64,000 nucleotides of DNA from NCBI GenBank assembly GCA_012295275.1, contig CM022667.1, positions 5,952,001-6,016,000 of the forward strand. Direction: 5' to 3'. Below the pieces are notes generated by a model. It had not been told where the DNA came from. It saw only the letters and a program-made list of their open reading frames with translations, and did no database searches. Positions 889-60,307 of this stretch are shown in pieces. A program made the translations under genes and the position numbers. The stretch comes from Chrysomallon squamiferum (taxonomy: Eukaryota > Animalia > Mollusca). Within the stretch, counting starts at the first letter, position 1; each line of letters begins with the position of its first letter.

Positions 889-2280
889 TACTCATTTCTA
901 ATCTCAGTGGTTTACTGGACATTCTAGCAGTATTCAGTTTACAAATCCAGTCTGTGACATCCTGATCTGAAGCTTTGTTAATTGTCAGAGAATACTTCTT
1001 AGTTGTTGACAGTCTGCTGTTTGTCCCATCTCCACACTCTACAGAATAACTCTGTCTGTCAGCTGGAGGATTCCACACAGAACACTGATCTGGTTTCTGT
1101 CTGAGTGAAGCCAAAGCCACATTACCACCATCTTTAAAAAATACTATTCTGTCTTGAAGATTTTCAGCACCTGACACTGTACAAGTCAGAGTAAACTGTT
1201 TGTCTTTGACTAAATGAGATGAAGATCCAGACAAAGTCAATGAAACACAATCTGTAAAATAAAATTGAGAAAATTAAAAAAACACAAAAAAAACCAATTG
1301 TATTCATTTATTCAGTTTTTATTTGTTTATTAATTTATTTATGGTTAACATTATTATTCAGTATTTCTAATGTAATTAACTCTATGGTTATTTAAGATAA
1401 TGAGAGAAGTGACATCATCATTCATGGAAAATGATGCTATTTTTAACTGGCAGCAATGTCTGTGTGTGTGTGTTTTAACCACATTGAAAAGAAAATATAA
1501 AGTACAAACTATGGCTATTAATGGTCTTTGATGGGAAAATCATTACATGAAATGCAGCTGGAATGAACACTATAGAAATTGTGTAAAGTGCAGTATCTGT
1601 ACATTGAATTAACAAAGACATATAGTTCTACCTGACTTACTATCATCATGCAGCAGTTGAGCACAAATATAGATCAACAATATTAGAAAAATCTTGTTCA
1701 TGATTGCAAAATGAAAGTTTTTATTATTGTTTTCCCTTCCTATTACAGTTTAGATATATACAGTTTTAGGAAATTTAGTATTTGTAACATTTTGGGGTGT
1801 GTATTCCATTCATGTTGTAAATTGTTAATTACTCTTTAATTAACATAAACATTCTTTTGAAATTAGAAACAAAATTAGTTTTATCTATTGAAATATCTCA
1901 TGAAAAAAGAAAAATCAATACATAAAAACTGATAATAAAAAAAATGATATAATAAGTTAAAACATTTGTTTGAATTTTAGTTATAGTTAAAGATCACAGT
2001 GCAAATGTATATTGAAAATATGTTTCAGTATTACTCCATTCACTAAATATTGAACAATATATATATATATAATGAAACAAAACTCAGGAAAATGCGGCAG
2101 CTATCATACGTATGAATAAAATAATGTTAATTTTCGCAGCTGATAACCAATAAAAATTAAGTGTGAAGAGGTTGGGTTTTATTAAACAGTTTCTGTAAAT
2201 TTACCTGAATACGTAACACTGCTCAAGAAGAAAACCACTAAAATCAGTTTCTTGTCGACTGTAGAAAACATCGTAGACAT
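889..2280 (-). CDS. Gene A (5' part; continues off the left edge): IgSF receptor with V1-type head
   Basis: Signal-peptide exon 2205-2280 (MSTMFSTVDKKLILVVFFLSSVTYS+G, donor GTAAAT). V-like Ig exon 889-1251 (363 nt, phase 1-1, TTTTACAG acceptor, GTAAGT donor; FTLTC...DVTDWIC). Paralogous to genes B and G. Confidence 0.85.
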
Positions 2281-3906: not shown

Positions 3907-4293
3907 AAACCCATCAAAGTATGTGCACTGTTTCTAGTAGAGTAATCTTCTCTAGTTCTTATATGGAGATGTTTCCCAGCATCTTCCGGACCCTTCTTTA
4001 TTAGTTCAAGTGCATCGACTACAACTATCTCTGTTGTTATTCTCATCTCCCACATCTCGCTCATCTCTGTTTCAGATTCTGCATTTCCTTGAAAACGACG
4101 TTTCTCTCTGAAGGTACAGACATGTCCATAAAAAGGCAGTTTATTTTATTTGTTCTTTTTGTTCTTATTGTTCTTTACAATATTACATGTTATCCTATTT
4201 AGATAATGTTGCAGCTGACCATAGAAATAATTTTGTGATTTCAGAATAACTATTTGGAAAGCATTACAGTACTAGATTAATTTTATTTGATGC

Positions 4294-4464
4294 GATGAGA
4301 TCATTACATCAGTCATCATTACTTTCCTGCAGCAGCATCCTGGCTTTGTGTTTCAACATGACAACGTTAGGCTTACCACTAATCTTCTTGAGTGGAACCA
4401 TATCGAAGTGTTGAATTGGGCATCAAAGTCTCCTGAATTGTTCCCAATTGAGCATGCATGGGCC
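4294..4464 (+). mobile_element. Degenerate Tc1/mariner transposase fragment
   Basis: Translates DEIITSVIITFLQQHPGFVFQHDNVRLTTNLLEWNHIEVLNWASKSPELFPIEHAWA, matching the Tc1 DDE motifs FQ(Q/H)DNA..H and W...SPDLNPIE..W with a short internal deletion. No TIRs recognised. Confidence 0.8.
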
Positions 4465-4555
4465 TACTGGGCTACCACATACACAATCATTATTGAGCCT
4501 CTCTCACCATTTTGGTAGATGTACCCCATGTTTCATTAGCTGACATTAAGGCACA

Positions 4556-5348: not shown

Positions 5349-8300
5349 TCAGCCTGTGACTTGTGAGTTTTCATAGACGGTGAGTACAGAGTATGGTGAG
5401 TCTTTTCTAGCTTCCAGTGATGAGTAATTGTTTGTAGTATCTGTGTTTCTCTCAGTATCTGAAAAATAGTCTTGATTACACAGTTGTACAGAAGTAGTTG
5501 TGACAGTATTTCTAATAAGGTAAAAATGTAACAGCGACGATAGAGGAAACAACAGAGTTGTTCTGTTGTATCCGAGTTCTCTGATAAATCGCTGAAATAA
5601 TATCTTTTTTTTAGAAACTACAACATTTCATCACAGATAGAAACCACAAATGTTAATATAAAACATGAATTATATATACGTCCAATGATTATTTTCCTTC
5701 TTAATAAATGTATCTGGTTATATGTAAAAATAAATGTAAATGCATTTTGTAGATTTTTATGTTTATTTTTTACCCCAGTAACAGATCACATCCTTTACTG
5801 ATAATAAACAATGTAACATATACAAAGTACTGTAACATAACAACAAAAAACAATATTTGTATTTTATATACATATTTCTCAGTTACCCTGAAAACAAAGA
5901 TCACAGACTTACAGACGGTCTGATTTAACCGCTCAGATTCGCAGAAACTGTTTGATCTGTTACACTTTGTATTTATATACTGACCTTGACTTTGTTGAAG
6001 ATCGTCATAGAGAGAAGATTCCTGTACTGCAGTGTTAAACTGTCTGAAACAAACAAACCACTGAGAAGTCGGAAATCTTGGATTTTATTTATTTAAACTA
6101 ATTTAAATTTGTGTGCATTGTTATGTGTAATATTTCCTCCATATTGATTTTCAGTTTGTTTTTTTTAAATTCAAATTTTCCATATCCTTAATATGTCAAA
6201 ATAACGTAATATTTAATTAGAAATGAAAACGGCTGATATTTATTAATAATTAGTCACAAATTTGGTTTTTATTTCTTCCTTAAATTTTTACAACTTACCT
6301 TGATGTGTACGTTTGGTCAGACTTAAACTTTTCTAAAACAAAAATAATATTAAGAATGTTAGAAATGTAAAACAACATCTCTTATTAATATATGTTTTAC
6401 AACAGTTATTTAGAATTCTTAATTATTTACTGTGATAAGCAGGATTAATAATGTTCCAGCATTTGAGGAGAAAGAATTATTGTTTATATACTGTATCTGA
6501 TATCTTTTGAAGACGATAGTGTCTTTGTAAAATTTACCTTTACTCTTCCTGCAGAAAATTAAAACAATTCCTCCAATTAAAAGTTCTGTAGCCAATGTTA
6601 TTCCAATTCCAACACCAATTCCTGTTCCCAGTAAACACTCTTTTCTTTCTGTACTTTCCGAAGATGATGGAACTGAAAAGAATGCGAAAATTCCTGTGCA
6701 ACAGGCATAATACACACATATCTGTTTCGTTTGTTATGTTTTAAGTGCTCTTTTATATAACAGAATACACTAAACATGTAGCGTTATAGATGGAATTTAC
6801 TATGCATAAAGGCAGGATGAAACATAAGCAAACACTTGAGTATGTAATATTCCATTTTTTCATTCACCATTTTAAATTAATTTGTTCCTTCTACAAAAAG
6901 TGGACATAATAGAAATTGTTATATTACTGCAAATTAAAATATGCTCTTCTTTCACAGAAGTTTTGAAACCAACTTTGTTAAAAGCCAAAACTTGAATTAG
7001 ATGTGGATAAACAGCATAAATCAATTCATATTTAAATACTATTCACATTATGTAATATTAAACAGATGGTAAAATAAATTACCAAAAATATATAACTCTT
7101 TTTTTTTTTTCAAAAAAAACTCTTCACTTAAAAAGGTACACAAGTTTAATACAATCATTTATTTATTTCATTTATCACCTTATTTATTTATTTAAATTCT
7201 AAGTGTATTTTTAACAGAAATTAGCTACCTGTTTCATTCAGGGATAATTTCAAGATAAGCTCTTTCCTTGGTTCTCCATTTGACACAGCAACCTGATAGA
7301 TTCCAAAATCTTCTTGTTTGACATTTGTCAGTTTATATTCACCTACAGCAGACACATTTGTAGTGTTTACAGGTTGTATAGATCCAAGACTTTTATTGTT
7401 TACATCTGTGAATTTATACCAGGTAAATGTTGGAACTGGATTGGCAATCACAGAAATGTGTAGAGTTACATTTCCACCTTCTACAGCAGCAAATTTGTCC
7501 TGAACTGTAACTCGATGATCCAGTCTTGGTGAACCTATAGGAAATAATGTTCTTGTTACTAACATACAAATGATAAAATAAAATAAATTTAAATTAAATA
7601 ATTGTATTTAGTGACTTACATGTAACATTAAGCTGCATACTTTGTCTGACATCAGACTTGATGTTGTTTCCTGCTTCACAAGTGTAAAATCCTGTATCCA
7701 GACATTCAGCTTCATTCCAGCTGTACTCCACTGACTTGGAGTTTTTCACTTCACGTAGAATGTGTGAGTTGTTTAACAGTTTGATGTGAGATGCTGGATT
7801 ACTGTCAACTTCACATCTTAGATACGTAGGAGTCAGTTCATCAACTGTTATCTTTGTAGACTTTGAGTTTAAAGTGAAAGAAGTTACTGAAGTCTGATCT
7901 GTAACAAGTAAAAACAATATGTTGTATTTTGTCAAAAAGCGTTCATTATTAAGTAAGAAGGTTTATACTCATGAAGTGGACAATTGTTTTAATCATTTAT
8001 TTACTCGGTTTTTAATTAATCATTTCAATTTTTTATATGTAAGATTACATGCTTTAAATAATTGAAATTAGTCATGGTTCTACAAACGTCTTTGAAGTCA
8101 CTGAACGAAAAGCAGGGTCTACAGGAAATATAATTGAAAACCTGTTCTATAATATCAATCTGAAATAATAAGTGAATATCATGTGAACTCAACCTGAACA
8201 TAATTATATCTATCTATCTGCCTATCTGTCTGTATGTGTAATACAGATTATTTGTAATAGTTAATAATCCCATTTAATGCCAGGAAAATACAGTTAGTTG

Positions 8301-11300
8301 CATTGATAGTGGTAAATGGTTTGGAGGTGATGGTGGCAATGGACAAAGGGGATTAACTCTAGGTGAGTGGCCCAGTCCAGTATAAGCGGCACATACGCCA
8401 GAAATCAGTCGATTCCATTCAACAGCCATTACAGCCACTGCAGAACAAATTCCCACCCACCAACAACATAAATATGAATGTCATATTCATAACACTGTTC
8501 TCGAGTTTTTCAATTTTGCACGGATTAACAGCAACAGAATCCTGTTGACCAGAGCATGAAAGCCAGATCGACAAGATGCCACCATCATCATCGGCATCAT
8601 GATCAAGGACTGCCGGTTGAAAAAAGTAAAACCAAATGAATAACAATTCATTTTCCTACAATATAAAAAATGTAATGGGTTCAGACAATTTATTTTGTCT
8701 CACTAATGGTGGGACACCTAGGGGACATCTACAGAGCAAAGTTTCATGTGGCTCAGGTTAGGTTCCACCTACTGAACCACAGGGAACAGATCCAAGGATT
8801 CACTGAAGTATGCCAGAGGAATCCACTCCACCTTTGGGGCCGAAGGGAAATGGTTCATTCCCACCCATGAATTTTGCCGAGGGGGTTAAGGTAATGTAGA
8901 TATTTGCCAATTCTCTGACTTAAAGGTCAGGAGCACTGACGAGTCACATACATATCATATCATAAGGGCAATCGGTGAGTCTCCAGGGGTCCCAGGTTAT
9001 TTATAAATTCTTCTTTGGAATTTCTCTTGCTTCTCAACTCATATGATAATTAATATACACATTTTTATTTTATTTTACTTTATTTATTTTTTATTTTTAT
9101 TTTTTTTACTGATTTTTTTTACTGATTTATTTATTGAATTTTGAAAAAAATTTATCTGCCAACTTGAACAAAATCTCTTGTTCCTCTTGTCCACTTTACG
9201 ATGTATTACAAAACACATATTTTTATTTGGAATTTGTTGATTCCTTCTAATTTAAACGTTTAAGTTTGTATAAACATGAGCTATGCAACTCTTGTTTTCA
9301 TTAAATTCATTCATTTACGTTTTTACACAAACTAACAGGGTAAGAAAGAGAAAATAATATATACATTTTTAAAATTTATATATTTTTTAAACAGCTAAAC
9401 TGAACATTATTACAGCTGTGTACCTCAAAATATTAAAACTTCAAAATAACTATAAACATTATAAACATGAATCTGATTTTGACAAATCTTTTACAACTGA
9501 ATCTTTTGCCACCATTTTCATTTCTTTCTTTTTGTTTCTGCTTCTTCTTTTTTCTTCTTTTTCTTTCTTTTCAACTAGTATAATTTTAAAAAAGTATTTG
9601 TATAACGTTGTTTTATTTAATTAGTATTATTTTTTTTTAATAAGTATATAATATATAATATTTTTCTATAAGAACATTTTTCATTTCATTATACATTTAT
9701 ATATTTGTCAAAACATTTCTTAATGTTAAAGTATAAACCCTATTTAGGAAATCAAATTCTGTAAGTTTACTTACATTGAACATCCAAGATAACAGTTTTG
9801 TTTTTTGACTTGTTTGTGTTTACATTGGTGACAATACACACACAGACTCCAGCCTCTGTTCTGTGTATTTGTGTAAAAGAAAGTACGTCATCGTTTATTT
9901 CCTTTGTCTGACACTTCCACTTGTAAGAGCAGACTTCACCACAGTCTGCCTCACACAAAACAGCCACGTTTTTACCTTCTACTATCTGTACTGGTGAACT
10001 TCTGTTCAGTTTAACGTTTTCTGGACCATCTGAAAATGCAGTTAAATTAATTAATAATTATTGCTCTCTGTATTAAAACAGTGTACATGAATATGTGTGT
10101 GAGGGTGTGTGTTCCCAAAGAAGAGAGAAATGTTTTATTTAATGATCATGAAGACAAAGAAAAGAAAACAACATACTTTCAAGTGATTAATTTTTGTGTT
10201 ATTGTTTTGTTATTTTTTTTTTTTTTTTACCAATTTTAAGTAACAAAGTACAATGCATAAAAAGGGTTCAGTTATCAAGGATCTCGTACTGTTATTATTT
10301 GTAGCAGTGGAATACTCTATTAGAAAGTGGACACATTTTATTGTTCTTCACAAAATATTTTGTTTTAATGTGTGATCAAACAAATTTTTAAGACCGTATA
10401 TGCATTTCTAAACAAAGACATATGTTATTTTTCATTTCTCTAATAATCCTGTTTTAATACAAATTAAACAAAAGCCAGATTATTGCTGCTTCTACAAACA
10501 GCCTTCAACTTTTGTTTTTCTTTGTAAATATCAAGCAAATTCAAAGAAACATATGCAACTGTCAGTATGTCATCTTAATTAAATTCAGTTTGTGATGCAA
10601 GAAAACTGAAATATGCAAATATTTTTAACAATACTATTTTTTTGTTTTATTTTGCATAGAGCTATTACTGGACATCTATCAACAACAACATCATCAACAT
10701 TAACAACAACAACAATAATAATAATAATAATTAAAATAATTATATAAAATAATTTGAAAACATACAAAAAATTAATTTAGATCAATTATAAATACATAAA
10801 TTTCTAAGATTATTTTTAAACAAAACTCACAGTATACTTTCAGAGTGAAACTTTTAGTGAGAGATTTGGCTGAGACTCTGTTAGTCACAGTACATGTGTA
10901 CTTCTGTCCTGTCTGGTTTCTTCTCACATTTGTAACACTGACCTGAGACCCTGACTCAGTCTGTTGATTGTTAAGTGACCAGGAAAACAAACATGGCGGC
11001 TTGCAGACAGCAACACAGTTTACATTCAAATCATCTCCTTCTTCAACATTTCCTGGTGAAGTCAGCTCTACACTGTCTGGTCCACCTAAAAATAAAATAA
11101 TAATACTTCAAATAATAACAATAATAATAATAAAAAATAATAAAAAATACTGCTACTACTACTACTAATAATAATAATAAAAAATTTAACATGTGATCTT
11201 TTAATTTGCTAAAGATAACTTCCATTAATGACCATATGTTAAGGTGTATATTACATTTGCTGATATGTAATATGCATTAGAATAAACAATTACTGCTTTT

Positions 11301-13597
11301 ATAACAAAAAAATGTTTTCTAGAACTATGCTAATTTTTAATTTCAATGATGGTTTAACCTGAGACAAAAGTTAGAAATGCAAGGTAAGACAAAGACCCCA
11401 GTCAGAAAACTGTATAGGACAAAAGACACTCCATACTGTTTCTCATCTGAACTTTTGAATTGTTTCCATTTTGTAAAATCTGTCAAGATTATATCATTAA
11501 TATTTTCAATTTAATTTTTTGGGAGTGAGAATCTATATATTATTTATTTGTAATCTTAGTACAAAGTGCTTTCGGAAATTATAGTCAGTTTTCAAAGATA
11601 CATTATTATGCTTTGATATAAAATATCATTTGAAACTGTATCCTTAACCCTAATTATGATTATTAGTAATTAATTATGTTGGTTAAACATATTAAATTGA
11701 TGAACATGCCATTATTATTCTGATTTCGATAAAGAGATGTAGTATATATAATTTAGGCAGTTTGTAGCAGAGCTATCTATGGGTGGGCAGTTTGTCAAAC
11801 ATTGTTTAGTGTTGTTTTTCTCTGGGGGCTTTTGTTCTACAAAAATCCACTGAGGAAGCTTATGTCCTACAAACTATTTAACCTTATATATATATATGGA
11901 CACTTGCTTGCACATATATACACATACACACACATATATTCTCAGACCTCCTTTCATGTACACAATCACAGACAAACAAGATTTTCAGAATGGCAGATTT
12001 TTTGAGCTCGAGCTACAGGTTTGTAGTCATGAAAAAAAAAAAAAAAACTATTTGACTGAAAACTAGCACTATTTGTAAATAAGAGATTATTATGAAGTAG
12101 ATCTAATTTTCTGAAATGCACCATTATTTTTATCATTATTTAATGTATTTGAACCTAGTAGTTAATAATACAAATTAAACTTGACACTAGTATAAACTAA
12201 ACTATTAATAAACCTAAACTCTGATTATTCACCTGTGTTTGTTTGGTGATCAGCTGTTTTACTCCTGTACAAGTATTAATTATATTGTACACCTATTTTT
12301 TTTATTCTTTAATAAAATAGCAAAATAAATATCAACTATTTATGAGCTGATACAATTTTCTTTTTTTCTTTTCTTTGATCGTCTTGCAATACTTGAAGTT
12401 TATCAAAGTGGAATTGATATAATAGCAAAAAAAAAAAAAATAATTAAGTAATTAATAAAAATAAAAATAAAAATAATAATAATAAATAACATTAGAATAA
12501 TTATAAATCAAAAATGTCTTTCTTCCTTGTTCATTTTATTAAAACTGTACAAAGAAATGTATATTAACATTGTTCAAAAATGTATACAATACAAATGTCC
12601 AAATATATGTACATTAACACTGTAGAAAGAAATAATTTTGACATTACACAGATATATGTATATCAACATTGTATAAAGATATATTTATTTCAGAGTAATC
12701 AATGGATGGGTCATTTTTCTTCAAAGCAAACAAAAATAGCACATCAAAACAGTACATGATAGTCTATGATCTTCAATTTTCATAATGATTATCATAATGA
12801 TAATAACAATAAACATAATAAACAAATCTTAAAACAAATTATATTAAAAAAAAAAGTATGATTCTTTCAACATATTACAATTAATCTAAAATTGTGCTGC
12901 CAATCAGATACACTAAATTTAATTATTATATTTATCATTCACTGTTTCAGGGAATATAGTTTAATTCATTTTATGAATACATTTTATTTTCTTACTACAA
13001 ATAATATCTTTGTTATAAAAATATAATTATTTACTTACTGCTCATTTCTAATCTCAGTGTGTTACTGGACTCTCCACCAGTATTCAGTTTACAAAACCAG
13101 TCTGTGACATCCTGATCTGAAGCTTTGTTAATTGTCAGAGAATACTTCTTAGTGGTTGATAGTCTGCTGTTTGTCCCATCTCCACACTCTACAGAATAAC
13201 TCTGTCTGTCAGCTGGATAACTCCACACAGAACACTGATCTAATTTCTGTTTGAGTGAAGCAAAACTCCCACTACCACCATCTTTAAAAAATACTATTCT
13301 GTCTTGAAGATTTTCAGCACCTGACACTGTACAAGTCAGAGTAAACTGTTTGTCTTTGACTAAATGAGATGAAGATCCAGACAAAGTCAGTGAAACACAA
13401 TCTGTAAAATAAAAGATAAAATCTTTGTTTTCAGTATATCTGTTTCTTCTTAGTTTCTCAGATTGTTTCTTCTTCTTTTTAATAACATTATCATTCAATT
13501 TTTAATTTGGAAACTATTTAGTATCTGGTTATTTCACAAAATAAGTATTTAGAGGGAGTTGTTCATTTACAATATTTCATTACACTAAATCCAATTA

Positions 13598-13718: not shown

Positions 13719-16241
13719 CCTCTTTTATGTCTAAAATGAACAGATTTCTAGAATGACAACTGCATCAAGTATAAAATATATTACAGAGATATATGATAGA
13801 GTTCAGTATGTCCACTTGGATTAGGTGGGAAAAATACTTTTGTTACATTACTGCTTGATGCCAAATGTGTTTTGATGGTTAGCTATAGTCAAGCATACAT
13901 TTTGAACAAATGCAGAGCAATGACATTAGAGAAAGCTGGTGCTTTATTGTTAAATGAAAGAGGTTTTTTTATTTGTCTTTTTTGCTCTTATATATCCTTT
14001 TGAAGAACTTCACTATCTGTAACAATGGAAGTTCTGGTAAATGGGTTTTGAGGTTTGTATGTTAAATTATTAATTAGTCTTTTATTAAAACAAGCATTTT
14101 TCTAAGAATTTACTAACAAAATTAATTTTATCTAATGGATATGTGTTCTAGTAGGGAAATGACACTGATTAACGTATTACACTGTAAACTGTTTTATTTT
14201 TAAACAAGTCTGAAATTTTGTTATTGTTTAGTTTTATAGAAAAGAGTGAACACAGGATTCAGAAACAGTGAAACTGAAACGTGACTACTTTGTGTTGTAT
14301 CCTCCCATCCCACTTGTCACACATCTTACAACAATACAGCTGAGTGAACTCCTAACTACCTGAGTGAACTCCTAACTACCTGAGTGAACTCCTAACTACC
14401 TGAGTGAACTGCTAACTATCTGAGTGAACTCCTAACTATCTGAGTGAACTCCTATCTGAGTGAACTCCTATCTGAGTGAACTCCTAACTACCTGAGTGAA
14501 CTCCTAGCTACCTGAGTGAACTCCTAACTACCTGAGTGAACTCCTAACTATCTGAGTGAACTCCTACCTGAGTGAACTCCTAACATTTTACTACCTTTTT
14601 TTTTTATTTTTTTTTTTTCACTAAATACATATTTTCTTTCATGATAATATTATTTTATTTGTAAGTGAAAATGTCATTGTTAAATAGCACATTCTGGTTG
14701 CTCTTAATAATTTTCCTTGAACATACAAAGATAAAAACTGATAAGAGATTTAGAATTTGTATTTTTCTAATATAAAGGTATTTTCTAAATAACAGGTGTT
14801 TTTTTATCAGAATGAAAAGACGTGTATGAAACTAAAGACGTTATTTTTAATGTTGCTTTTCACTGAACCAAATCAGAGACACAGATTACAACTAGAAAGT
14901 GAAGTGATCAGAAACTAGAGAACTTAAGTTGATGTTACTGACTGACTTAAATGAATTTTGATAAGCAGATGTTTACAATTTATGTTTTAATGGACACTGG
15001 TATTTAGTGGGAATAACCCAGTGGGGGGGGTTGTCCTCCTTCATACAAACTATTTCCTTAAACAAAATCATGTTGAAAAAAACAACCAGAACAAAAAAGC
15101 AAACAAATAAAATAAAATAATGTTAACAATAACAATAATAATAAAGTAACCCTGGTTTGATATCTAAAATAATCAGATTTCTAGAATCACAGCTGCCACA
15201 TTTGGAATACAGATTTCAGTGAGATTTGCCAGAGTTCAGTTTGTGCACATTTTTGTTTTATTTTGTTTCTTCCTCTTCACCTTTTACAATTTGCCTTAAA
15301 TATTGTCTGAAGAACTTTAATAGCAGTAACATTGAAAGTTTTGGTGAAAGGGGTTTCAGATTTTGTATTTCTTTCTGTGTTAAATTATTAATTACATTTT
15401 TTATTAAAACAATCATTTTTCTATGAATTTAAAACATAATTAGTTTTATCAAATGGAACACATACTTTTGAAAAAAAAAAAAAAAACCTATTAACATATC
15501 ACACTCTAAATTTAGATTTTTGTAAACAAGTCTGAGTCTTTTATGTAAAAGATAAACTGAACATAACAGGATACAGTGACACTGAAACTCATATGTAACT
15601 AATTTGTACAGTGTCCTCTCATTTGTCACACATCTGATAACAACACATCTCATGGCTGAGTGAACTGCTGACTATATTGTCTCTACCTAGCACAGAATAA
15701 TGGACTCATCTTCCTGTAGGTTATAGAGTCAGCTTAGGGAATAATTAAACAAACCTCTACTAACAATTAAACACAAACACTGAACAGATATTATGTTAAC
15801 ATCCATAACATTACACATTCAGACACATAACACAAAGCTAATATGAATGATACATGGAGCTCTAGAGCGTATATTAGAGTGTTACAGTACATATCAGTTT
15901 ATAAATGTGTTCAGCGAAGTTAAATTATTGTGGTTTGATTACTTAGTCACTAAGCTGTCTAGGGGAGACAATCCTTTCTACTGCATGTGAATATATTTAT
16001 CCCTAGTCTATACACATTGATAATCAAACAACAATTAAACTTTTATCTAAACTGTGCAATATCTTTAAAACCTTCTCTTTTAAATAATATTTTTAGACAA
16101 TTAAGATGAAATAATAAGTAAAATATGTTTTGGTATTAATTATTAAGTCTAATAGAATATCAGTAAAAATAAATAAATTATCAATGATGATAGACATAAA
16201 ATTAAATATTTATTTGTTTTTCATGTTATTTTAGTCTTAAA

Positions 16242-16295: not shown

Positions 16296-16998
16296 CAAAT
16301 CAAAAATTAAAATGTAAAAAAGTGTATCAAATCTTTTATAAATATCAGAAGTTTGTACTTATAAATAATTCTTTTCTGCAGTTTGTGAATATTTTAAAAA
16401 TTACTACATAACAATTAATTATTTAAAAACAGATAAAATGTTTTTAGCTAAATTATTTTCACAGGCAGAAGTATTAAATGTAATTATGTATTCATAATTT
16501 AAATGTGACCAAAATTATGCCTGGTTACTAACAGATGTTGTTGAATCCTACAAAACGTATCATATTTATCTGAAAATTAATAAATATATCTAAACTGTAA
16601 TCAGAGAGGAATATGTCAGAGGATGTCACAGATCAAATCAGATTTTAATTCTTACTTTTCAGAGGAATATCTTTAAACCTGAAATAATTATAGAACGTTT
16701 AATTAATAGTGTTAATTTTATTATTATTATTGTTTTAATATTAAATTAATTTTCAATTTCACATGTTCTACTTTAATTCCATACTTTTAAAAAATAATTA
16801 TAAAACAATAAATAAATAAAATAAGGAAAAGGAGGTAGCTACAGTGACTCTGAATTAAAGTAAAATAATTTTCACAGCTGACAAGCAATCGAGACAGAGA
16901 GTCAAGAAGTTTTAACATTTTGTAAATTTACCTGAATACGTAACACTGTTCAAGACGAACACCATGAAAATCAGTTTCTTATCAACCGTCGAAAACAT
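5349..16998 (-). CDS. Gene B: complete IgSF receptor SP-V1-Ig2-Ig3-Ig4-Ig5-TM(Glu)-ITIM/ITAM tail, lacking an intact FN3 (about 620 aa)
   Basis: Exons: SP 16932-16998, V1 13039-13401, Ig2 10831-11085, Ig3 9775-10029, Ig4 7620-7898, Ig5 7229-7534, TM 6538-6672, tail1 6299-6332, tail2 5985-6043, last 5349-5458 (TGA). All GT-AG with compatible phases and an open frame (1863 nt). Tail: [67 protein letters not shown]. Confidence 0.88.
6928..7003 (-). pseudogene. Remnant 3' end of the FN3 exon in gene B
   Basis: Translates HLIQVLAFNKVGFKTSVKEEHILIC then a GT donor. Homologous to the FN3 ends YLIRVLAFNKFGFKHFTKEKEIFVC (C) and [25 protein letters not shown] (D). The first ~75 codons are missing. Confidence 0.8.
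8280..9030. other. GC-richer unidentified insertion in the Ig3-Ig4 intron of gene B (possible decayed element)
   Basis: Composition clearly differs from the AT-rich flanks and it is not seen in the equivalent intron of gene G. Only short ORFs, no recognised motif. Boundaries approximate. Confidence 0.35.
13601..13714. repeat. (AAT)n microsatellite; others at about 16221-16274, 19252-19308, 21441-21530, 22586-22633, 61363-61450, 62670-62739
   Basis: Read directly. These explain the poly-N/Y/L ORFs in the ORF track. Confidence 0.95.
14340..14584. repeat. 20-bp minisatellite (ctgagtgaactcctaactac), about 13 copies, intron 1 of gene B
   Basis: Head-to-tail copies with some 16-bp variants and no spacers. 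The paralogous site in gene G (about 62074-62114) has 2 copies. Confidence 0.92.
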
Positions 16999-20003: not shown

Positions 20004-21229
20004 CTATCTCTGACTTGTGTTTTCATAGACAGTGAGTACAGAGTATGGTGAATCTTTTCTTGCTTCCAGTGATGAGTACTTGTTTGTAGTATCCGTGTTT
20101 CTGTCAGTATCTGAAACCAGATATGTAATAATTGCACATCATGTCTTATACAGTAGTAGAAATAAAAGTAATATCAGAAGTAATGGAAGATCAGCACACA
20201 AGGTACATAGCAATTAAAATAGTTGTCTGTGTGTTGATCAAAGAATGAAATTTAAAGATTAGTTATGTTTTTCAAAATATAACAGATCATTTTGACTAAG
20301 ATTTTGTATTGTGCCTAGTCCATTTATAATTCATAATTATATATTCATGGTTGTAGAGACATAATCTATGAATCACAAAATATTTTATTACTATAGTTAC
20401 AGTGAGCAGATTGATATACCATCTGTCTTTCCTGTCTAGCCTAGACAGATTTGATAATAGTAATTAAAATCCTGCTATTTTAGCTAAATGTTATATTTTT
20501 ATACAAAAAAAAAAAAAAAAAAAAAAAACAAATACTATCACAGACTGTATTTATGCTGATTTTGATTACTTCTCTCTTTCAGTTATTTAATAATTTATTA
20601 TTATTTTTATTTATTTATTTTCTCTATTCTAAAACTAACAGATTTTACTGACTTTGACTTTGTTGAAGATCGTCATAGAGAGAAGATTCTTGTACTCCAG
20701 TGTTAAACTGTCTGAAACAAACAACACTTTCCCATTATTTAATTATTTTAGTTTTGAGTATATTAAAATAACATCTTTAAGATAAAAAAATAAATAAATA
20801 AACAAATAAATAAATAAATAAATAAGCAAAATTAATAAAAGGATTTAAAAAAATAAATTTAAATAAAAAAATAAATTAAAAAGCAATAAATTTGTGTAAT
20901 TATTAAGTGAACTGAACATGTAGTGATAAACAATGTATGTTTCATATCAGTTTAACTTTGATCTTTATTTTGGTGTCTCAATATACTGTAATATTAAATA
21001 CCTTTGTGTATAGATGTGATCTGTTATACACTTCTCTAAAATAAAATAAAAAATAAAAATTAAATGTAAAAGAGGTGAAATGACATTAATTAGATCATCA
21101 GTCCTGATTTACTATAAAATTACAAACATATTAATAACAATAAGAAACAACCATCAATTAAAGAGAAATATTTAAGAAATTATGTGTAAAGAAACAAGAA
21201 AAATAAATTCATTTGAATGTAGGAGTGCC

Positions 21230-21263
<34 letters not shown>

Positions 21264-21440
21264 TAATAATAAAAAACAAATAAATCAAAAAAGTAAAAAA
21301 GGAAAAAATATTCACTTGTTTTAATGCAGTGAATTAAAATAATAACTGCACCGATAAGAAGAATTGCAAACAGTGTAATTCCAATTCCAATACCAATTCC
21401 TGTCCACAGTAATCTGTCCTTTTCTGATGTACAGTCTGAA

Positions 21441-21472
<32 letters not shown>

Positions 21473-21497
21473 TAATAATAATAATAATAATAATAAT

Positions 21498-21532
<35 letters not shown>

Positions 21533-22582
21533 AAAAATAATAGTAATAGTAATAATCATTGATATATAATTGGAAAAATATTTTCTAGTTGTACCTCAAG
21601 TTAAAGTAACTTGACAATTATTATAAATTTAGCAATCACACAATTATAATAATTCATATTAACGTTTTCTGCAGTTTTACTGTAAAATGCCTATTAAATT
21701 AATATTTCACTGTACTGAAAGTATAAGGGCAATTAAGTCAGTGCAGTAGCTCCAGTCAAACTTTGACTCTTACTCAGGGTAATTATCATCAGTTTCTTGA
21801 AGCCTGTTTGAGAAACTTTTTGTATGTGTCATTGTTAAAAATGTATTTTTAATTGAATTTACCACAAACAAATATTTCCTTTTCCTTGGTAAAGTGTTTG
21901 AATCCAAATTTGTTAAAAGCCAAAACTCGAATCAGATATCTGGTGTTTGGTTGTAAACTAGAAATCTCTGCTGTGTGATTTGTGTGAAGACCTTTTTCAC
22001 CAAACTGTTCAGTGAGATTTGTCCACTCAGATGTTGTGTCTGCTCGATACTGTACAAGAAATGTTTGTTGTGATCCTCCATTAAATTCTTCTGTCCAAGA
22101 CACTGACACTGAATGTGGACCTGTGATCCAAGTTCGCACATCAGAGGGAACAGTTGGAGGACCTTCGAATTAAACATTTTATCACTGGTTTGTTGAAAAT
22201 ACTCAAAGGTTATAAATAAAGGATTTATCTCATATAACTGAATACATGAATATTTAAATGTTTTGGAAACTGTAGTTCTACTTCAGTTGAAATTAAATCT
22301 TTATCTACAATTCTGAAAGAAAAATCATGTTGTTGGTTTGATAATAGTAGAAATGTTTTTAAACTTGAACTTTCAAATCAGATTAATTCATGAAGAAAAC
22401 AGCTAAATGTTACAAACTTATCTGTCACACGCTCAAATATCATTTATGCAAATGATGAACAAGAGCTTCACAAAAGATAGAAATGATATTGAATGACACA
22501 CACATGCACATGCACACAAACATCATTCTGACCTGATACCATACCCATTTTATGTAGAATTTTAACTTTCTTACTATTACTA

Positions 22583-22637
<55 letters not shown>

Positions 22638-25600
22638 TTTTTTTTTTGTCATTTGTGCAGACAATATTTTTAAAAAAAATGAAAATATTTACACTCTGCT
22701 TTTACAAATAAAAAAACATTTTGTAATTACCTTCTTGAGTGAGATTTAATTTTTCCACAAGATCTTTTTTTGATTCTCCATTTGACACAACAACCTGATA
22801 AATTCCAAAATCTTCTTGTTTAACATTTGCTAGTTTATATTCACCTACAGCAGACACAATTGTAGTGAGTACAGGTTGTATAGATCCAAGACTTTTATTT
22901 TTTACATCTGTGAGTTTATACCAGGTAAATGTTGGAACTGGATTGGCAATCACAGAAATGTGTAGAGTTACATTTCCACCTTCTACAGCAGCAAATTTGT
23001 CCTGAAATGAAACTCGATGATCCAGTCTGGGTGAACCTGAAGAAAATAAGTTCCTTATTATTCACATGCCAACAAAAGATATCTAAAACACAAAAATGAA
23101 ATACAAAAAAATGGAATTGCGAAGGAAGACATCCAGGAGAAACATTGTAAATACAAAATTAATTAAACTTTTCCAAATGACAGTAAGTTATATTGGACAC
23201 TGCCTCAGCAATATGGTATTGTGGGAAAAGCAACACTTCAATATAATAGCTGAACAATTAAGACATAATACAGACAGCAAAATTCTGTATCTGCTAGCAG
23301 AAAATACAACTGTATGTAAACAACAAATGTAAAGTAACAATGTGAACTATTCTGAAAAAGTAACTGAAAGAAACTAATTTCAGTAAGGTTTTTTTTATTG
23401 AGATGATAATTTAAAAAGATGGTTGAAAACAGATATGAATAAAATGGTCTTGTTTCCCATTTGTGATCTAGATTTGTTTTCTTCATCAATGCTAAACAGT
23501 TGTTTATATTCACCAGTGAGCTGATTTATTTCTGACTTTTTTGTTACCACTTTGTAACCAGAGGTATACTATTTTATAAGCACATTTTTGTTTCTAAAGT
23601 ATTCATTCTGTTGTACTTATGAAATGGATTGTTAAAATTCTGATACCAAATACTTAAAACGTCACTAACATCAGTTAATTACAACATTTAGTAACTTGAG
23701 GATATAAAATTATAGTGATTTTTTTATTATTATCATGTTTTTTTATTCTTCTTTTTTTTTTTGTATTTTATCTGCATTAAACAATTGGGACTTGTGAAAA
23801 CAGTAATAACAATTATTGTCTGTGAATGTGGTATGGCAGAAGTAACGTAAATGTCTTTTTCTAGTGTATTTTGAAAAACTATATTAATTAACAGACTGCA
23901 TGTCCCAGAAGTACACAATATCTGATTTGGCAAATCAAATAATTATGTTATATGTACAGTTTATAATCAGTTTTTTAATTAAATGTTTTTCTTCAAATAC
24001 TGTTATTTTTCATCTTATTAATTCATGACTTGAAACTGCATCTGCTTGGTTCACATAGCAAAATTGTTTAATTTACTGGTTTTTCAAAATGTTTTCAAAA
24101 ATATACATATGACTATCCTTGAAACACCCCAGAATAAATCTATATTATTAAAGACAAAGAGTGACATACATGTAACAAGAAGCTGCACACTTTGACTGAC
24201 ATCAGACTTGATGTTGTTTCCTGCTTCACAAGTGTAAAATCCTGTATCCAGACATCCAGCTTCATTCCAGCTGTACTCCACTGACTTGGAGTTTTTCACT
24301 TCACGTAGAATGTGTGAGTTGTTTAACAGTTTGATGTGAGATGCTGGATTACTGTCAACTTCACATCTCAGAGACACAGGAGTCAGTTCATCAACTGTTA
24401 TCTTTGTAGACTTTGAGTTTAAAGTGAAAGATGTTATTGAAGTCTGATCTGTAAGAAATACAAAATAATGTGGTGTTTTGAATCAAAAACAATTCAACAT
24501 TAAGTAACAAGGTTTATGTTCAGAAGTTTTAATCATTTATCTATTGGGTTGTTAATTTATCATTTTAAATTTTTATACATAACATTATATGCTGAAGAAA
24601 AAATAAATAAGCAAAGACTAAAAGAAAAGGAAGGAAAAGAAAAAAGAAAATAAGTTTTATTAATCAAAAATTCTATTTGCTTTACTAAATAGCAAATCAT
24701 ATTGTTTGTTGTAAAAATAACTAAAATGTTAAGCATATTAAAGCTAAGCACCAGAATTGAATTTAAGTTCAAACAAAACAATCCAGTATCTAGATATCAC
24801 ACTGTGAAACAAACCATTCTGGAGTCAGTGAAAGAAAAAGAACCAAATAATGAAGAATTAATGGTGATTTTAGGAGAAAAAACATATGTTAATGAAGGAA
24901 AAGGCTCTGCAGGTAATGAACTGATGAAGAATATTATTTGACAGTATAGTAATTAAAACTACTGAAAACATGTTCTGTTATCTCAGTCTGAAATTAAAAA
25001 AAAAAAATGTCATAAAATATATTTTATTTTATTTTACTTTTGCCTGTTTGTATATGATTTTATAGAAAAAAAGGAAGAAAAAACCAACAACAAACTAACA
25101 ACAAAAAAACAAGCAACTGAATCAACATATATATATATACGTACAAAAATAAAACGTTAGTCGCTTTATATCAATTACTTTCATTTAACATTTACTAACA
25201 GATCCTGAAATGTACATTCATTATGTACTTATTAATTAATTTACTAATTAACAAAAATAAACTCACACAGGACATCCAGTGTAACTGTTGTGTAATTTGA
25301 TTTGTTCGAGTTTGTGTTGACAGCTGTACACGTGTAGACACCAGCCTGTGACTTGTCTACATCATTTAAAGTCAACACAGCACTTGTAGACTTTGTGTAT
25401 GTTTTAAACTTCCACGTGAAAGAACAAGATGTACGACAATCTGCTTCACACAACACAGCCACATCATCACCTTCCTGTACTGTCAGTGCAGAACTCACGT
25501 TTACTTTTACACTGTCTGGTCCATCTAAAGTACAAATAAAGTATTATATGTGGTTTTGTGATCTTTCTCTGAATAACACTTACACATTTTATAAAATATT

Positions 25601-28600
25601 TACTTTATTATACATATATGTGTTTATGAATAATAATATTAACAACACACACACACACCCACACCCACACACACACACACACATATATATATTATAAGTA
25701 TTAATATAGGTAAAGACACTGATATGTAGTGACATAGATATTAACTGACAAACACAGTAAAAGCTAATTTTTTATTTAGCTTTCAGATATAACTAATAAA
25801 TAAATTTTCTGAAACTGACAAAACTGATAAGATCAAATATGTGGTTAAAACACATACATTCACAAATTTTGTATTAACTGATATACATTTCTTTGAAACT
25901 AATATATAGGACTCATATTAAAATTCTAAGACCTGGTTAAATCCTCTTCTAACAGATGATCGTGTTCTATGAATTAACATTATTAAACTATACTTACAGT
26001 AAACTGAGAGTGCAAACTGCTCAGATTTTTCCACTGATGTAGTCGGGTTGTTTGCTGTACATTTATATATTTCACCTGTCTGATGTCTACTGATATGTGG
26101 CAGAGTTAACTGAGAAGTTGCAGAAAGTATTTGATTGTTGAGTGACCAGGAATAGGAACATGTAGGATTACAGATAGAAGTACAGGTAACTGTCAGTGTG
26201 TCACCTTCTACAACTGTACCAGGTGATGATGGATTCAGTCTGACACTGTCTGGACCATCTGAATGTGAAACAAGGAAAAAAGATGATTATCATTTGACAG
26301 TTTATAACAGGGACATTCTATAATGATGCCAGATCAATACTGATTTTGGGCATGAATACACTAATTTTCTGACTAAAATTCATAGCTGTGATAGTTTAGA
26401 ATTGGTTTCTCTTTAATTGTACTATAATCATCATTATTTAATGTTTGTTTAAGCTCTACATTAATTATAATTACTGATTACAACTATTGCACTTAAGGTG
26501 ATATTATTTTAAAAATAATTAATAATAAAAATAAAAAAAGAGTAAGAAAAAAAGAAAACAAAAGGCATGAAAAGAATGAATAAAAAAATATAAAAATTAA
26601 AGAGTAAAATCCGGATTAAAACCAGATATTATATTTGCTCTTTTAACTAACAAGGCTTGCAAATGTTGGTAATATTTCCAGTAACTGGGTTTTTTTTTTT
26701 TTTTTAATCAGGCCTAATTTATATTTAAATATCTATCTGTAGAGAATAGTTGGGGAAAAAATAATAAAAAATAATGAAATGAAAAGAAGTATTTTATTAT
26801 TTGGTGATCAAAATCTTATCATTTGATATTACAATTTGTCCAACACAATTATAAATGATAAATGTTTCAAATGATTTAACCATTCTCTTTTTATTTCTCC
26901 CTCATCCATTTCTTCAAATTATAAATTTACTGTAAAATAAATATTATTATTAACAATTTGTATACACACTATTTCCACTTCTAGGAAGTGAGTGAGGTTT
27001 TTATTTTGAATTTCATGAAACATTTTAAACAAATCACATTCTTTCTGTTGATTAACTCATGTAGATAGTGAGACAATTATTCCAATCAGCCTACTGCTTT
27101 TCAGTGGCCTCCATTTTACTGTACAATTATTTAGGAGTCACCAAAGTGAAACTGTTGATAGGTGGATTGTGAATTACAATTATGAATAATGAAAGTATTT
27201 AATTCTGACATTATTATATAAAGATTTAGCAGAAACAGGTGTCTCTGTCAGTTTTCTCTCCATTTCTGTATTTGTTTTGTTGTGCATACCAATTTTTTCC
27301 TTTCTTACCATTTTCATTTTGTATTCATTTCTGATTAGCAAACCAGATATCAATACATATAAACTATTGCTTAAACCAAAGAAGACAAGAATATTTACTT
27401 TCAGAAAGACATGATATAAAATAAGATTTATCTTCATTTGTTGTTTTCTTTTTTTCTCTTTTTCAACTGATGCATTTTACAAAAAAGAACATCTAAATTA
27501 AAACAAATGTAGCTAGCATGATGCCATTTCATGTGAAACTGACCAGCTACCTTAACTAAACAGTCAGTGATACAAAATAATGTTTGTCTAATTTCATCTT
27601 TTTTGTTTAATTGAGGAATTAAATTAAAAAACCACAAAAAAAACACACACAAAAAAAAAGAAAAAAGAAAAAAGAAAGGTATATGAACCAACAATACAGA
27701 AAATGAAAAGAACTTAAATCTATTTTAATATAACTTTTTGCACATAGTTATTACAATAAAAGCAAAATAATAATAAATTAATACAATCAGAAAAATGAGA
27801 GAACAAAAACATAACAACACTCCTCCCACCACAAACAAACAAAAAATAAAACAAAGAAAAGAAAGCAAGTCTCAACTCACATATGTATGGAAATACTCCT
27901 TTAAAAGAATAAATAAATAAATAAATAAATAAATAAAATGAAACCATTCTGTTTCACTAAAAATAAAGCAATTCCCTATAATTGAAGATTTCAAATATTT
28001 CTAGAATGTAATGTTGACAATACAGAAGTCATATGGAAGATATAACACTACATAAATAATGACCAGTGGAAGGAAGGACTCACATAATTTAGTTTTGGTA
28101 CAAGTTGATGGATTTCCATTTCCTCCATCCTGACATCTCCATGTTCCCACATCTGTATCAGTGTTGAAAGACTGAATAGTTAGAGTTATCTGTGTTTGTG
28201 AGTCAGCAACAGCAGAGTAACCAGGTGATCCTCTACACCGAGTGTTGACTGTGTTACACTGTACAACTTGTCTGCCTCCTGGTGCTATGAAGATGATTCC
28301 AATGGTGACTGAACCAGTTATTTTACACACCAACTGTGTACTATGTCCTTGTTGTCCACCACCCATACAGTCAAGTGTTGTAGTAGCCTCACCTGTAATT
28401 ATTATTAAATATCAGTTATATATATCATTTTTAATATTACAGTTATCTTACATTCTGTGTACTTGTTGTACATACAGTCAAGTGTTGTAGTAGTCTCACC
28501 TGTAATTATTATTAAATATCAGGTATATCTATTAAATATCAGGTATAAACTAGTTAATATTTGTTGTTATTTATTATTTGAAATCAAAATAAGTAAATTT

Positions 28601-28805
28601 TGAAAGTACATTGTTTGATAATTCTACTTTCCCACCTGTTAAAGACACTAATCTAGTTTTCGTAGATTTTTAAATATATTTTATCTGCTGAAACATTTTA
28701 ACACTTGAAGTTGTAGATGTTTGTCTGTGTGTCAGAGATTTTACCTTTAACTAGACTCACGAGAGAAATGACGAGGATAACTCCACTGAAGACATTGAGA
28801 AACAT
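20004..28805 (-). CDS. Gene C: complete IgSF receptor SP-V2-Ig2-Ig3-Ig4-Ig5-FN3-TM(uncharged)-ITIM/ITAM tail (about 697 aa)
   Basis: Exons: SP 28745-28805 (MFLNVFSGVILVISLVSLVK+G), V2 28084-28392, Ig2 25998-26258, Ig3 25267-25524, Ig4 24170-24448, Ig5 22731-23036, FN3 21863-22162, TM 21316-21435, tail1 21002-21035, tail2 20653-20711, last 20004-20110 (TAG). All GT-AG, open frame (2094 nt). Tail ends ESSLYDDLQ...[26 protein letters not shown]. Confidence 0.9.
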
Positions 28806-30400: not shown

Positions 30401-31296
30401 CGCCCTAGTCGGCTGCCTAGTTTCCCAAAAACGTAATGTTTCCTAAATCAGATTTATTTCTTTACAACATAATTATAAGTCAAAGCTAAAGCAAACTGTT
30501 AAGTAATCAGTACAAGAACACACGGTACATAATTTATTACGTGCAGAACTAGTGCAGTAGGGTTACTTTGTAGTCTGTTTGTGATTTTGAAAAACATCAT
30601 GCCAACTTTCCTCTGCTACAATTTCCTAATTTATAGCCAGTGTGAATGTCAGGTTTACTACGTGATCTCATTTTACCCACACATTTTGTCCGTTTCTCTT
30701 ATAATTCCTCACAAGTTTTAACTGAACTTTTTAAATTATTATAATTTTAATAGGAATTCTTAAGTAAAAACAGAAATGAATTATGATATAAACTGAATAT
30801 TTAGACAAGTAATTAATGAGCATATTCTGTTCTGTTTATTAATTAGTATGCAAATTATGTGGGTTTTTACATTAGCATATCTATATATAATTCAAATAGT
30901 GATAAACAGTTGATATAGTATTATGCTTATAAAATACATATTAATATTCAGATCAAGGTAAGAAATTAAAAGTATTTGTGTTACAGATTACATATGAACT
31001 CATTCATTTCTCTCTTCTTTCATTCAAAATGACAGATCACAGATAAGATCATGAACTGAAATGTAAAAAGAAAAATTCATTTATTTATTTAGTTAGATTA
31101 TTTTCGTTTATTTTTCTCTTTTTACTACACTGTTATTTTGTTATTATTATTTCTATCACACACTGTTGTGTCAATTATTATAGAACTGTAATAGGGTTTG
31201 TGAATCTACATAGTAATAACAAAACAAAACGCAATACATAAATATTCTTTTTATTTGAAATTACCTAATAAAGTCGTTTTACTAATATATTTCTAT

Positions 31297-31517: not shown

Positions 31518-32988
31518 TCAACCTGTGACTTGTGAGTTTTCATAGACAGTGAGTACTGAGTATGGTGAGTCTTTTCTAGCTTCCAGTGATGAGTAATTGT
31601 TTGTAGTGTCTGTGTTTCTGTCAGTATCTGAAACATAATCTTGATTATACAGTTACACAGAATATAATTAAAGTAGTAGTATAAAAAAGTAAAGCAGTAA
31701 GTAACACAGTTTCTTCTCGCTGTACTTGAGATCACTAATAATATTTAAAATAATAACTTATCTGTTGTGTTGTGTTATTTTATTTTGTTTGTTTGTTGTT
31801 GCTTTTTTAATTCTCACAAATTACATTTCATGAGCAAATTAAAGACAATAAATGTTAATATAAAATTTAAACAATGTATACTTCTACTGATCATTTTCCT
31901 TCATTTTAAAAATATCAGCTAAATCATAAAAACAAATGAAGTGTAAACATTTATGTTTATTATTATTTTTAATTTATTTTTTGTTGTAGATTGATCCCTT
32001 TATTCTCTACCACAATTCCTGATCAAATCCTTTATATGTTAGTTATTTAATATTAGAACAATAAAATAAGACTTTGTACTTTAGGTATGTCTCAGTTATT
32101 CTGAAAACAAAGAAAGCAGACACACAGCATGTTTCTGATTTAACAGGCAGCTTCACAGAAACTCTTGAATCATTTACACTTTGTATTTATATACTGACCT
32201 TGATTTTGTTGAAGATCTTCATAGAGAGATGATTCCTGTACTCCAGTGTTAAACTGTCTGAAACAAACAAACCACTGAGAAGTGGAAAATTATTAATTTT
32301 GGTTTATTTAATCTATTTCACATCTGTGTGTGTGTACGTGCATGAATACCTACGTGTGTATAGTTTTTCATCCGTAATAATTTCTTTTCTTTTCCAAATA
32401 CCCTTTTGACTAATTAGCATAATATTTATTTTTCAGTTAAAACGAAAACGACTGACACATTGTTTTTCTATTTCTTCCTTAAATTTTCATAACTTACCTT
32501 GATGTGTACGTGTTCTCACTCTTAGACTTTTCTAAAACAAAAAATAAATATTCAGAATATTAGAAATGCGAAATAACCCTTATTAATATTTGTTTATAAA
32601 TGTTACTTCTTTGTTTTGACAAACAAAATTTATAATATTAAAAAAGTTGAGAGGACGAAGCAAAGCACAGTATTCATTATTTGTAAAATAATGTTTTCAG
32701 TTTCCTTGTAAAGTTTACCTTTTCTCTTCCAGCAGAAAAAGAAAACGATTGCCCCAATGAAAAGTTCTATTCCCAGTAATATTCCAATTCCAATACCAAT
32801 TCCTGTTCCTAGTAAACCGACTTTTTCTTGCGAACATTCTGAAGATTAAATAAATGAAAAAGAACGTGTAAATATCCTATAAAATACACAGCAAGTTGGT
32901 TTCAGATAATACATTTTTAATTTATCTGTCTATTAATCTGTGGTTGTGTGTGTGTGTATATATATATATATAGATGTTTATCTGTGTG

Positions 32989-33019
<31 letters not shown>

Positions 33020-36820: not shown

Positions 36821-36851
<31 letters not shown>

Positions 36852-38147: not shown

Positions 38148-38178
<31 letters not shown>

Positions 38179-46541: not shown

Positions 46542-46580
<39 letters not shown>

Positions 46581-46585
46581 TAAAC

Positions 46586-46624
<39 letters not shown>

Positions 46625-51996: not shown

Positions 51997-52027
<31 letters not shown>

Positions 52028-59978: not shown

Positions 59979-60029
<51 letters not shown>

Positions 60030-60276: not shown

Positions 60277-60307
<31 letters not shown>

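Follow-up and report, generated by a model that had tools for sequence, protein, structure and literature searches.

How do neighbouring receptor genes come to carry nearly identical exons between introns that can no longer be aligned, together with heads and tails whose histories disagree? The question is raised by a stretch of 64,000 nucleotides from Chrysomallon squamiferum (the window; all coordinates below refer to it), which harbors a tandem cluster of type-I immunoglobulin superfamily (IgSF) receptor genes with the exon order signal–V–Ig2–Ig3–Ig4–Ig5–(FN3)–TM–Cy1–Cy2–Cy3. The answer favored here, with a probability of roughly 0.7, is that repeated short conversion tracts confined to exons made these exons alike, and that rarer crossovers re-paired two ancient V heads with the blocks of transmembrane (TM) and tail exons.

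Composition of the receptor cluster

The window is AT-rich (GC ~28%) and contains two 200-N gaps (36220–36419 and 56532–56731). A Pfam Ig match was obtained for six of the seven Ig exons tested, and an fn3 match for the FN3 exon. The V2 exon is without a Pfam match; its predicted structure is a V-type Ig fold (pLDDT 92.5), matching antibody V domains and CD8. Signal peptides were called by eye as hydrophobic first exons. Two head types, V1 and V2, occur in the cluster and are 26–31% identical to each other, homogenisation of the heads being found within each class only. The only intact genes in the window are B (620 aa) and C (697 aa), which have open frames with no internal stops, one TM segment each, and GT–AG boundaries at every intron.

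At the left edge, gene A (889–2280, minus strand) is represented by its signal exon and V1 exon, the remainder lying beyond the window. Between A and B, a short reading frame (4291–4515, plus strand) resembles what we take, by its motif, to be a fragment of a Tc1/mariner transposase. Gene B, on the minus strand, comprises a predicted signal exon of the V1 type (16932–16998), the V1 head exon (13039–13401), Ig2 and Ig3 of the V1 class (10831–11085 and 9775–10029), Ig4 (7620–7898), Ig5 (7229–7534), a TM exon bearing glutamate (6538–6672; TLATELLIGG), and the tail exons Cy1 (6299–6332), Cy2 (5985–6043; SLYDDL) and Cy3 (5349–5458; YSSL-x7-YSVL, YEN). Its FN3 exon was lost by deletion: a remnant of the FN3 3' end (70 nt) with its GT donor remains in the intron between Ig5 and TM (6928–7002, minus). 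Two further peculiarities of the B introns were recorded. The signal–V1 intron harbors an array of ~20-nt tandem repeats (about 12 units at 14340–14582, and 2 in gene G at 62074–62115) situated at the edge of the block of high B–G identity, and the Ig3–Ig4 intron carries a GC-richer insert (8206–9050), absent in G, pieces of which match other loci in the read contigs.

Gene C (20004–28805, minus) encodes the intact 697-aa ORF and is headed by a signal exon (28745–28805), V2 (28084–28392), Ig2 (25998–26258) and Ig3 (25267–25524), followed by Ig4 (24170–24448), Ig5 (22731–23036) and FN3 (21863–22162), an uncharged TM exon (21316–21435) and the tail exons (21002–21035, 20653–20711 and 20004–20110). 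Gene D is present as its 3' part (31518–36219, minus), with Ig3 (35561–35818), Ig4 (34628–34906), Ig5 (33824–34129), FN3 (33250–33549), a glutamate-bearing TM (32719–32838) and a tail; the head is cut away by the gap at 36220–36419, and no head exons were found between Ig3 and this gap. On the plus strand, F+E (36420–48093) comprises a partial V2, Ig2 (38501–38761), a second V2 (41228–41536), a broken Ig2 (42526–42762), Ig3, a frameshifted Ig4 (44608–44888), a donorless Ig5, FN3 (45982–46281), a glutamate-bearing TM (46731–46850) and a tail. E is thus damaged in Ig2, in Ig4, where 2 nt are inserted, and after Ig5, where the GT donor is missing. Because no signal exon was found ahead of the second V2, F+E is best read as a single gene with a presumably doubled V2–Ig2 unit. 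F2 (50930–56531, plus) holds a signal exon, V2 (51544–51849), Ig2 (53671–53931) and the start of a second V2 before the next gap. Gene G (56732–63290, minus) carries a signal exon (63215–63290), V1 (60782–61144), Ig2, Ig3, an Ig4 (57109–57387) interrupted by a TGA stop, and an Ig5 cut by the gap; part of the 5' end of Ig4 also recurs, in degenerate form, within its Ig3–Ig4 intron (58124–58196). Upstream of each V2 exon, the splice acceptor and the first ~30 coding bases are tandemly copied in one to three extra copies (at 41117, 51220–51434, 56290 and 28503), which could be decoy or alternative acceptors.

The contig bracketed by the two gaps (36420–56531) carries its genes on the opposite strand and has terminal repeats of 99% identity, 4.9 kb long, with 25 substitutions and 20 gap openings; the F2 region is a 99% direct repeat of 36420–41359. 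It is likely that this contig is inverted in the scaffold, and that F2 is then the head of D. With the middle contig turned around, all genes would lie in one orientation and F2+D would form a sister copy of F+E. The pairs D/E and F/F2 may represent duplicates or alleles, or else a doubling that is false.

Homogenised stalk exons between unrelated introns

In Ig4, genes B and C differ at 11 of 279 nucleotides, the very number that the initial annotation of this DNA had estimated by hand, and identity among B, C, D and G amounts to 96–98%. The B–C synonymous divergence (dS) is 0.032 in Ig4 and 0.124 in Ig5 versus 1.16 in Ig2, 1.23 in Ig3 and saturation in V (synonymous contrast of Ig4 and Ig3, Fisher p = 4e-13), so V1 and V2 genes have indeed diverged in V, Ig2 and Ig3 as had been claimed. 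Among B, C, D and G, the dS of Ig4 ranges from 0.016 to 0.049, against 1.04–1.43 for Ig2/Ig3 between the head classes. For the same four genes, 84 of 84 informative sites in Ig3 support the split BG|CD; over the three possible splits, the sites are divided 1/0/1 in Ig4 and 1/1/3 in Ig5. Per-exon trees and dS, suggested earlier as a check, accordingly return incongruent heads and stalk and a very low dS in Ig4.

Around most splice sites, this identity decays to the background level over no more than ~20 nt. The Ig4–Ig5 intron measures 85 nt in B (7535–7619), 1133 in C, 498 in both D and E and 90 in G, in line with the four lengths annotated for B, C, D and G, and the B intron aligns with that of neither C, D, E nor G. 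Among the Ig4–Ig5 and Ig5–next intron pairs, none except D–E scored above shuffled controls. Five successive introns of C and D are unalignable, although they are flanked by exons of 90–98% identity (97–98% in Ig3 and Ig4). By contrast, recent duplicates retain alignable introns, as do D and E, or C and F2, whose V–Ig2 introns share 1666 of 1781 positions with 115 mismatches. A C–D identity block extends 33 nt into the intron following Ig3, and the 150 nt at the 3' end of the Ig3–Ig4 intron of B (7899–8053, minus) are ~80% common to B, C and G and absent in D/E.

Homogenisation is also found in the first 240 nt of FN3, in Cy2 and in most of Cy3, as well as within classes in V1, V2 and Ig3; among the ectodomain exons, Ig4 and Ig5 are those homogenised across both head classes. 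The 3' 45–60 nt of Ig5 and FN3 escape it, and the B Ig5 accordingly consists of a homogenised core and a diverged final ~45 nt. The excess of differences at the Ig5 edge is significant at all sites (p = 1e-7) and not at synonymous sites alone (p = 0.34), hence selection may shape the edges of this exon. GC3 does not rise in the converted exons, being 0.35–0.36 in Ig4 and 0.16–0.23 in Ig5 versus 0.28–0.38 in Ig2/Ig3. Codon bias was rejected as the source of the low Ig4 dS: Ig4 does not differ in GC3 from Ig2/Ig3, which reach a pS of 0.6. As separate observations, the V1 exons (889–1251, 13039–13401 and 60782–61144) are mosaic, that of A being B-like at its 5' and G-like at its 3' end (p = 0.001), and V pairs display dN above dS (e.g., 0.108 versus 0.063 for B–G), with the changes clustered in the middle of the domain.

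Taken with the unalignable introns, dS values of 0.03 in Ig4 and 0.12 in Ig5 uphold the earlier suggestion that these exons were homogenised by conversion, and we infer concerted evolution of the stalk exons through exon-sized gene conversion. Conversion tracts would end where intron homology ends, as the observed drop of identity at the splice sites suggests. Between species, Ig4 is the most conserved domain (70–75% versus 43–61% for the others), which likely keeps it convertible: purifying selection would hold old paralogues similar enough to pair and convert. The same conservation might be cited for a recent whole-gene duplication after which introns turned over rapidly and exons were held by strong purifying selection, with no conversion at all. 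We regard this scenario as highly improbable and largely refuted by the contrast of dS and introns: selection at the protein level does not hold dS at 0.03, and genuinely recent duplicates (D–E, C–F2) keep alignable introns, which the five C–D introns are not; recent duplication was therefore rejected as the source of the exon identity. Equally improbable is homogenisation from spliced RNA, i.e., conversion templated by cDNA. It would account for most high-identity blocks ending within a few bases of splice sites, but hardly for the C–D block reaching into the intron after Ig3, for the absence of any lost intron, or for the unhomogenised 3' ends of Ig5 and FN3 despite their place in the middle of the transcript. 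Exon-sized conversion between genomic copies remains the preferred reading of the stalk.

Probable exchanges between heads and tails

The ectodomain exons are all in phase 1-1 and of lengths divisible by three, so that an in-register crossover, the loss of an exon (FN3 in B) or its doubling (V2–Ig2 in F+E) would preserve the frame. In its tail introns and 3' flank, B can be aligned with D/E at ~72–77% identity, with scores of 59–203 versus shuffle maxima of 29–42; with C, the corresponding scores (23–33) are at the shuffle level. The earlier statement that B resembles D/E, not C, in TM type, tail introns and 3' flank is therefore sound. A 24-mer quoted in its support occurs at 5961, 32175 and 47395 and is absent from C, and 4604–4689 matches 30591–30675 at 84%. 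The heads of B and D are saturated, yet their TM dS is 0.28 and their tail introns are ~75% identical. Conversely, C and F2/E have heads of recent common origin and unalignable tail introns (TM dS 0.62); no alignment was obtained for the C–D tail introns either. Since B shares its head with G and its tail with D/E, and C has a head in common with F/E but a different tail, at least two head–tail exchanges appear to have taken place. As gene B resembles C and G in the 150 nt immediately preceding Ig4, and resembles D from TM onward, one switch in B would fall in the Ig4–Ig5–FN3 interval, a pattern that ancestral pieces of intron could mimic.

Not every exchange claimed before fares equally well. 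Of the combinations listed, V1 with a glutamate tail (B) and V2 with an uncharged tail (C) occur in intact genes; V2 with a glutamate tail is represented by the broken F+E and the gap-split D. Exchanges had been placed in Ig4/Ig5, but the long tracts that can be dated end elsewhere: the C–F2 tract at the end of Ig2, and the D–E tract near FN3/TM, where 8 substitutions in 2200 nt (~99.6% identity) give way to 164 in 2800 nt (~94%; p = 2e-32), a boundary for which assembly is a possible explanation. The FN3 exon of E, described as C-like at its 5' and D-like at its 3' end, makes a weak chimera. It agrees with C and not D at four sites only (37, 38, 87 and 130), it is D-like at two synonymous sites within this stretch (27 and 41), and C, D and E are nearly identical over the initial 240 nt of FN3, so general homogenisation plus changes private to D suffice.

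Nor is the view of the tails as different signalling modules supported. All four tails in the window (B, C, D and E) carry SLY[DE]DL, YSSL-x7-YSVL and YEN, and hence the ITAM pattern YxxL/I-x6-8-YxxL/I, the last two tail exons being homogenised; a homologous motif is present in both tail types, I and II, of Gigantopelta and in Haliotis. Paired receptors with opposing tails were rejected on the ground of these shared tyrosine motifs. The tails differ in the TM exon, with glutamate in B, D and E and none in C, and in the short Cy1 exon. The ligand-binding heads are, overall, not homogenised between tail types, the V2 of C and the glutamate-tailed F+E making the one paired-like case. The products are predicted to reach the cell surface as receptors whose V tips vary and whose ITAM-like tail is common to all and, judging from its motifs, would signal via Syk; the rarer crossovers would re-pair V heads with TM/tail blocks differing mainly in the membrane glutamate. 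This residue, which likely alters assembly with partners or oligomerisation, stands together with the ITAM in B, D and E. An acidic TM residue combined with an ITAM recalls the CD3 and CD79 signalling subunits.

The reads offer a view independent of the scaffold. Contigs of four runs (X1, X2, X8 and X9) were placed on 5601–9300; X1 may be the source sample. In X1, unique B introns are matched without difference at depths of 28–43, and one 140-nt Ig5 contig reaches a depth of 780; in X2, an Ig5 contig has a depth of 193 versus 14–28 for unique B introns. These depths are a rough sign of many identical Ig5 copies. Flanks of G type and D type appear as loose ends in the X1/X2 DNA contigs, and RNA contigs contain further variants of FN3, Ig5 and Cy1, so the family extends beyond the genes in the window. 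RNA contigs of X8/X9 contain the Ig4–Ig5 splice, those of X9 join the end of a V1-class Ig3 to the common Ig4 (four contigs, agreement 0.82), and Cy2 is found joined to a C-type Cy3. Among the contigs listed for 5601–9300, none spans the stalk by 31 letters on each side, gaps in coverage counting as no evidence. Several letters of Ig4/Ig5 private to B (e.g., 7706, 7819, 7823 and 7826) are absent from the X1 and X2 contigs, which drop rare variants; this absence may reflect bubble removal or consensus error. Reads of Ig4/Ig5 from this cluster are not assignable to single genes.

Relatives, rival readings and known systems

All 16 Ig4 matches are proteins of Gigantopelta aegis (69–78% identity over most of the query for full-length matches); remoter relatives occur in Haliotis and a scallop. 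In trees built from domains covering at least 75% of the query, V1 and V2 each hold both species (support 100/100), so both heads are older than the split between the two snails. The Ig4 and Ig5 exons of the window form clades of their own (96/93 and 99/98; 87/91 and 100/99 with more rows), i.e., part of each gene was homogenised after speciation, Ig4 and Ig5 grouping by species and the V classes spanning both. Gigantopelta data are automatic gene models compared at the protein level, which may be fused or truncated. Nine of the 28 proteins have a V domain and a type-I or type-II TM tail, and they comprise all four combinations: V1+I (1), V2+I (2), V1+II (4) and V2+II (2), so heads and tails are uncoupled in a second species as well. 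Downstream of the head, identity is equal for pairs with the same and with different V; Ig2 and Ig4 track neither head nor tail, and Ig5–FN3–TM track the tail. The models, named 'hemicentin/nephrin/CEACAM-like', share the domain order, both V classes and a homologous tail with the window genes, their Ig4 being 69–79% identical; they differ in that Ig2–Ig4 are common across heads, Ig5–FN3 go with the tail, and the glutamate sits in the second tail type. Three of them (P0011, P0004 and P0027) display SRCR repeats on the same stalk, or V1 and V2 in one chain with a third tail; these may be further real shuffles or fused models.

The TM glutamate was found in 5 of 12 type-II and 0 of 5 type-I TMs of Gigantopelta, and in two proteins of Haliotis cracherodii, a relative with the same tail in H. 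rubra having glycine; the screen covered 142 proteins, 76 with a TM segment and five of these charged. Presence and absence of the glutamate on one conserved ITAM-like tail is thereby observed in three gastropod lineages (P0006/10/12/14/24; P0057 and P0081 versus P0070). Between the window and the other species, the glutamate is displaced by roughly one turn of the helix, which suggests separate origins.

The initial annotation went further and treated the stalk as a recombination hub. Its incongruent histories stand, and so does one switch between the Ig3–Ig4 intron and TM; the part that does not follow is that the hub is a selected one. In its strongest form, the identity of Ig4/Ig5 would be maintained by selection for high-rate germline reassortment of heads with tails with or without glutamate. 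The uncoupling of Ig4 from both head and tail in the two species, the exchange mapped to the stalk and the recurrence of the glutamate variants speak for it. We nevertheless consider it unlikely: the window displays few exchanges, most of them old (intron identity of 75–80%), the recent long tracts end at Ig2 and near FN3/TM, exon-centred homogenisation strikes V1, V2, Ig3 and the tail exons within classes too, and all tails have the same motifs. A stalk kept as a hub and a stalk converting since it is the most conserved exon may both fit the data. Still less probable, though somewhat more likely than the duplication and cDNA scenarios, is a mosaic produced by an assembly that collapsed repeats, kept both haplotypes as duplicates or mis-joined sequences in the shared stalk. 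The gap-flanked 20-kb contig on the opposite strand, the abrupt change in D–E identity and the indels of E invite this suspicion, but B and C are intact and no gap interrupts the stretch that holds them both, with canonical splice sites, private sites and introns of their own; X1 contigs match the B introns exactly, and the G-type and D-type flanks recur in X1/X2. Mis-joins, moreover, cannot yield near-identical exons amid unrelated introns, and Gigantopelta has the same pattern independently. The doubling of D/E and F/F2, for its part, may well be artefactual or allelic. The reading of conversion plus rarer crossovers is therefore retained.

Precedents for the process itself exist in vertebrate receptors, in protocadherins and in the fester genes of Botryllus. 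The paired leukocyte receptors KLRC, Ly49 and PIR underwent merohomogenization after speciation by conversion and recombination, their ligand-binding domains being homogenised, their tails opposing and their stalks spared (PMC3210942); in dog CEACAM1/CEACAM28, the homogenised tract measures 2.3 kb, introns included (PMC2110893). Homogenisation limited to parts of tandem receptor genes after speciation is common to both cases. Here, on the contrary, genes with two strongly dissimilar heads have become alike in stalk and tail motifs, and the tracts are exon-sized. In clustered protocadherins, a proximal ectodomain homogenised by regional conversion stands beside divergent distal specificity domains (PMC1852091), much as the proximal exons of the window are homogenised at synonymous sites and the distal ones divergent; protocadherins, however, have one large variable exon joined to common constant exons, whereas the window holds separate multi-exon genes with unalignable introns, no GC3 rise and reassorting tail blocks. 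In the fester/FcoR genes of Botryllus, an invertebrate receptor family, ecto- and intracellular regions are mixed by intergenic recombination and tails carry tyrosine motifs (bioRxiv 10.1101/2024.10.16.618699); that system belongs to another protein family and phylum, and the passages available name neither a homogenised stalk exon nor a TM glutamate variant. The oyster CgIgR has five Ig domains, a TM segment and an ITAM, YTELGQCDPETPYEKL, and is reported to bind bacteria and recruit Syk (PMC6994640). It resembles the present receptors, by motif and description, as a mollusc Ig receptor with an ITAM of like form, and is described as a single gene, the available text mentioning no cluster, conversion or TM glutamate (PMC6994640). 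In the literature covered, which excludes subscription papers, we found no published account of this gastropod family or of recurrent TM variants with and without glutamate.

Overall, exon-limited conversion, accompanied by a few head–tail exchanges, is well supported for these ITAM-like Ig receptors, which make up an undescribed gastropod family. A more far-reaching reading is tentative and rather doubtful, if less so than the selected hub: a combinatorial ITAM-receptor system in gastropods, in which the homogenised Ig4 stalk permits germline reassortment of the tails with V1 and V2 heads (perhaps also with SRCR heads in Gigantopelta), and the TM glutamate switches a stand-alone ITAM receptor to a CD3/CD79-like subunit of a larger complex and back. 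Were it true, head–tail phase would be polymorphic in populations. The locus clearly exemplifies exon-sized conversion among paralogues with introns that can no longer be aligned. Compared with vertebrate paired receptors, the pattern is inverted: homogenisation affects the stalk and the signalling motif, and two ancient heads are kept apart. This expanded family, with and without the glutamate in three gastropod lineages, is a lead on how molluscs may diversify recognition without somatic recombination.
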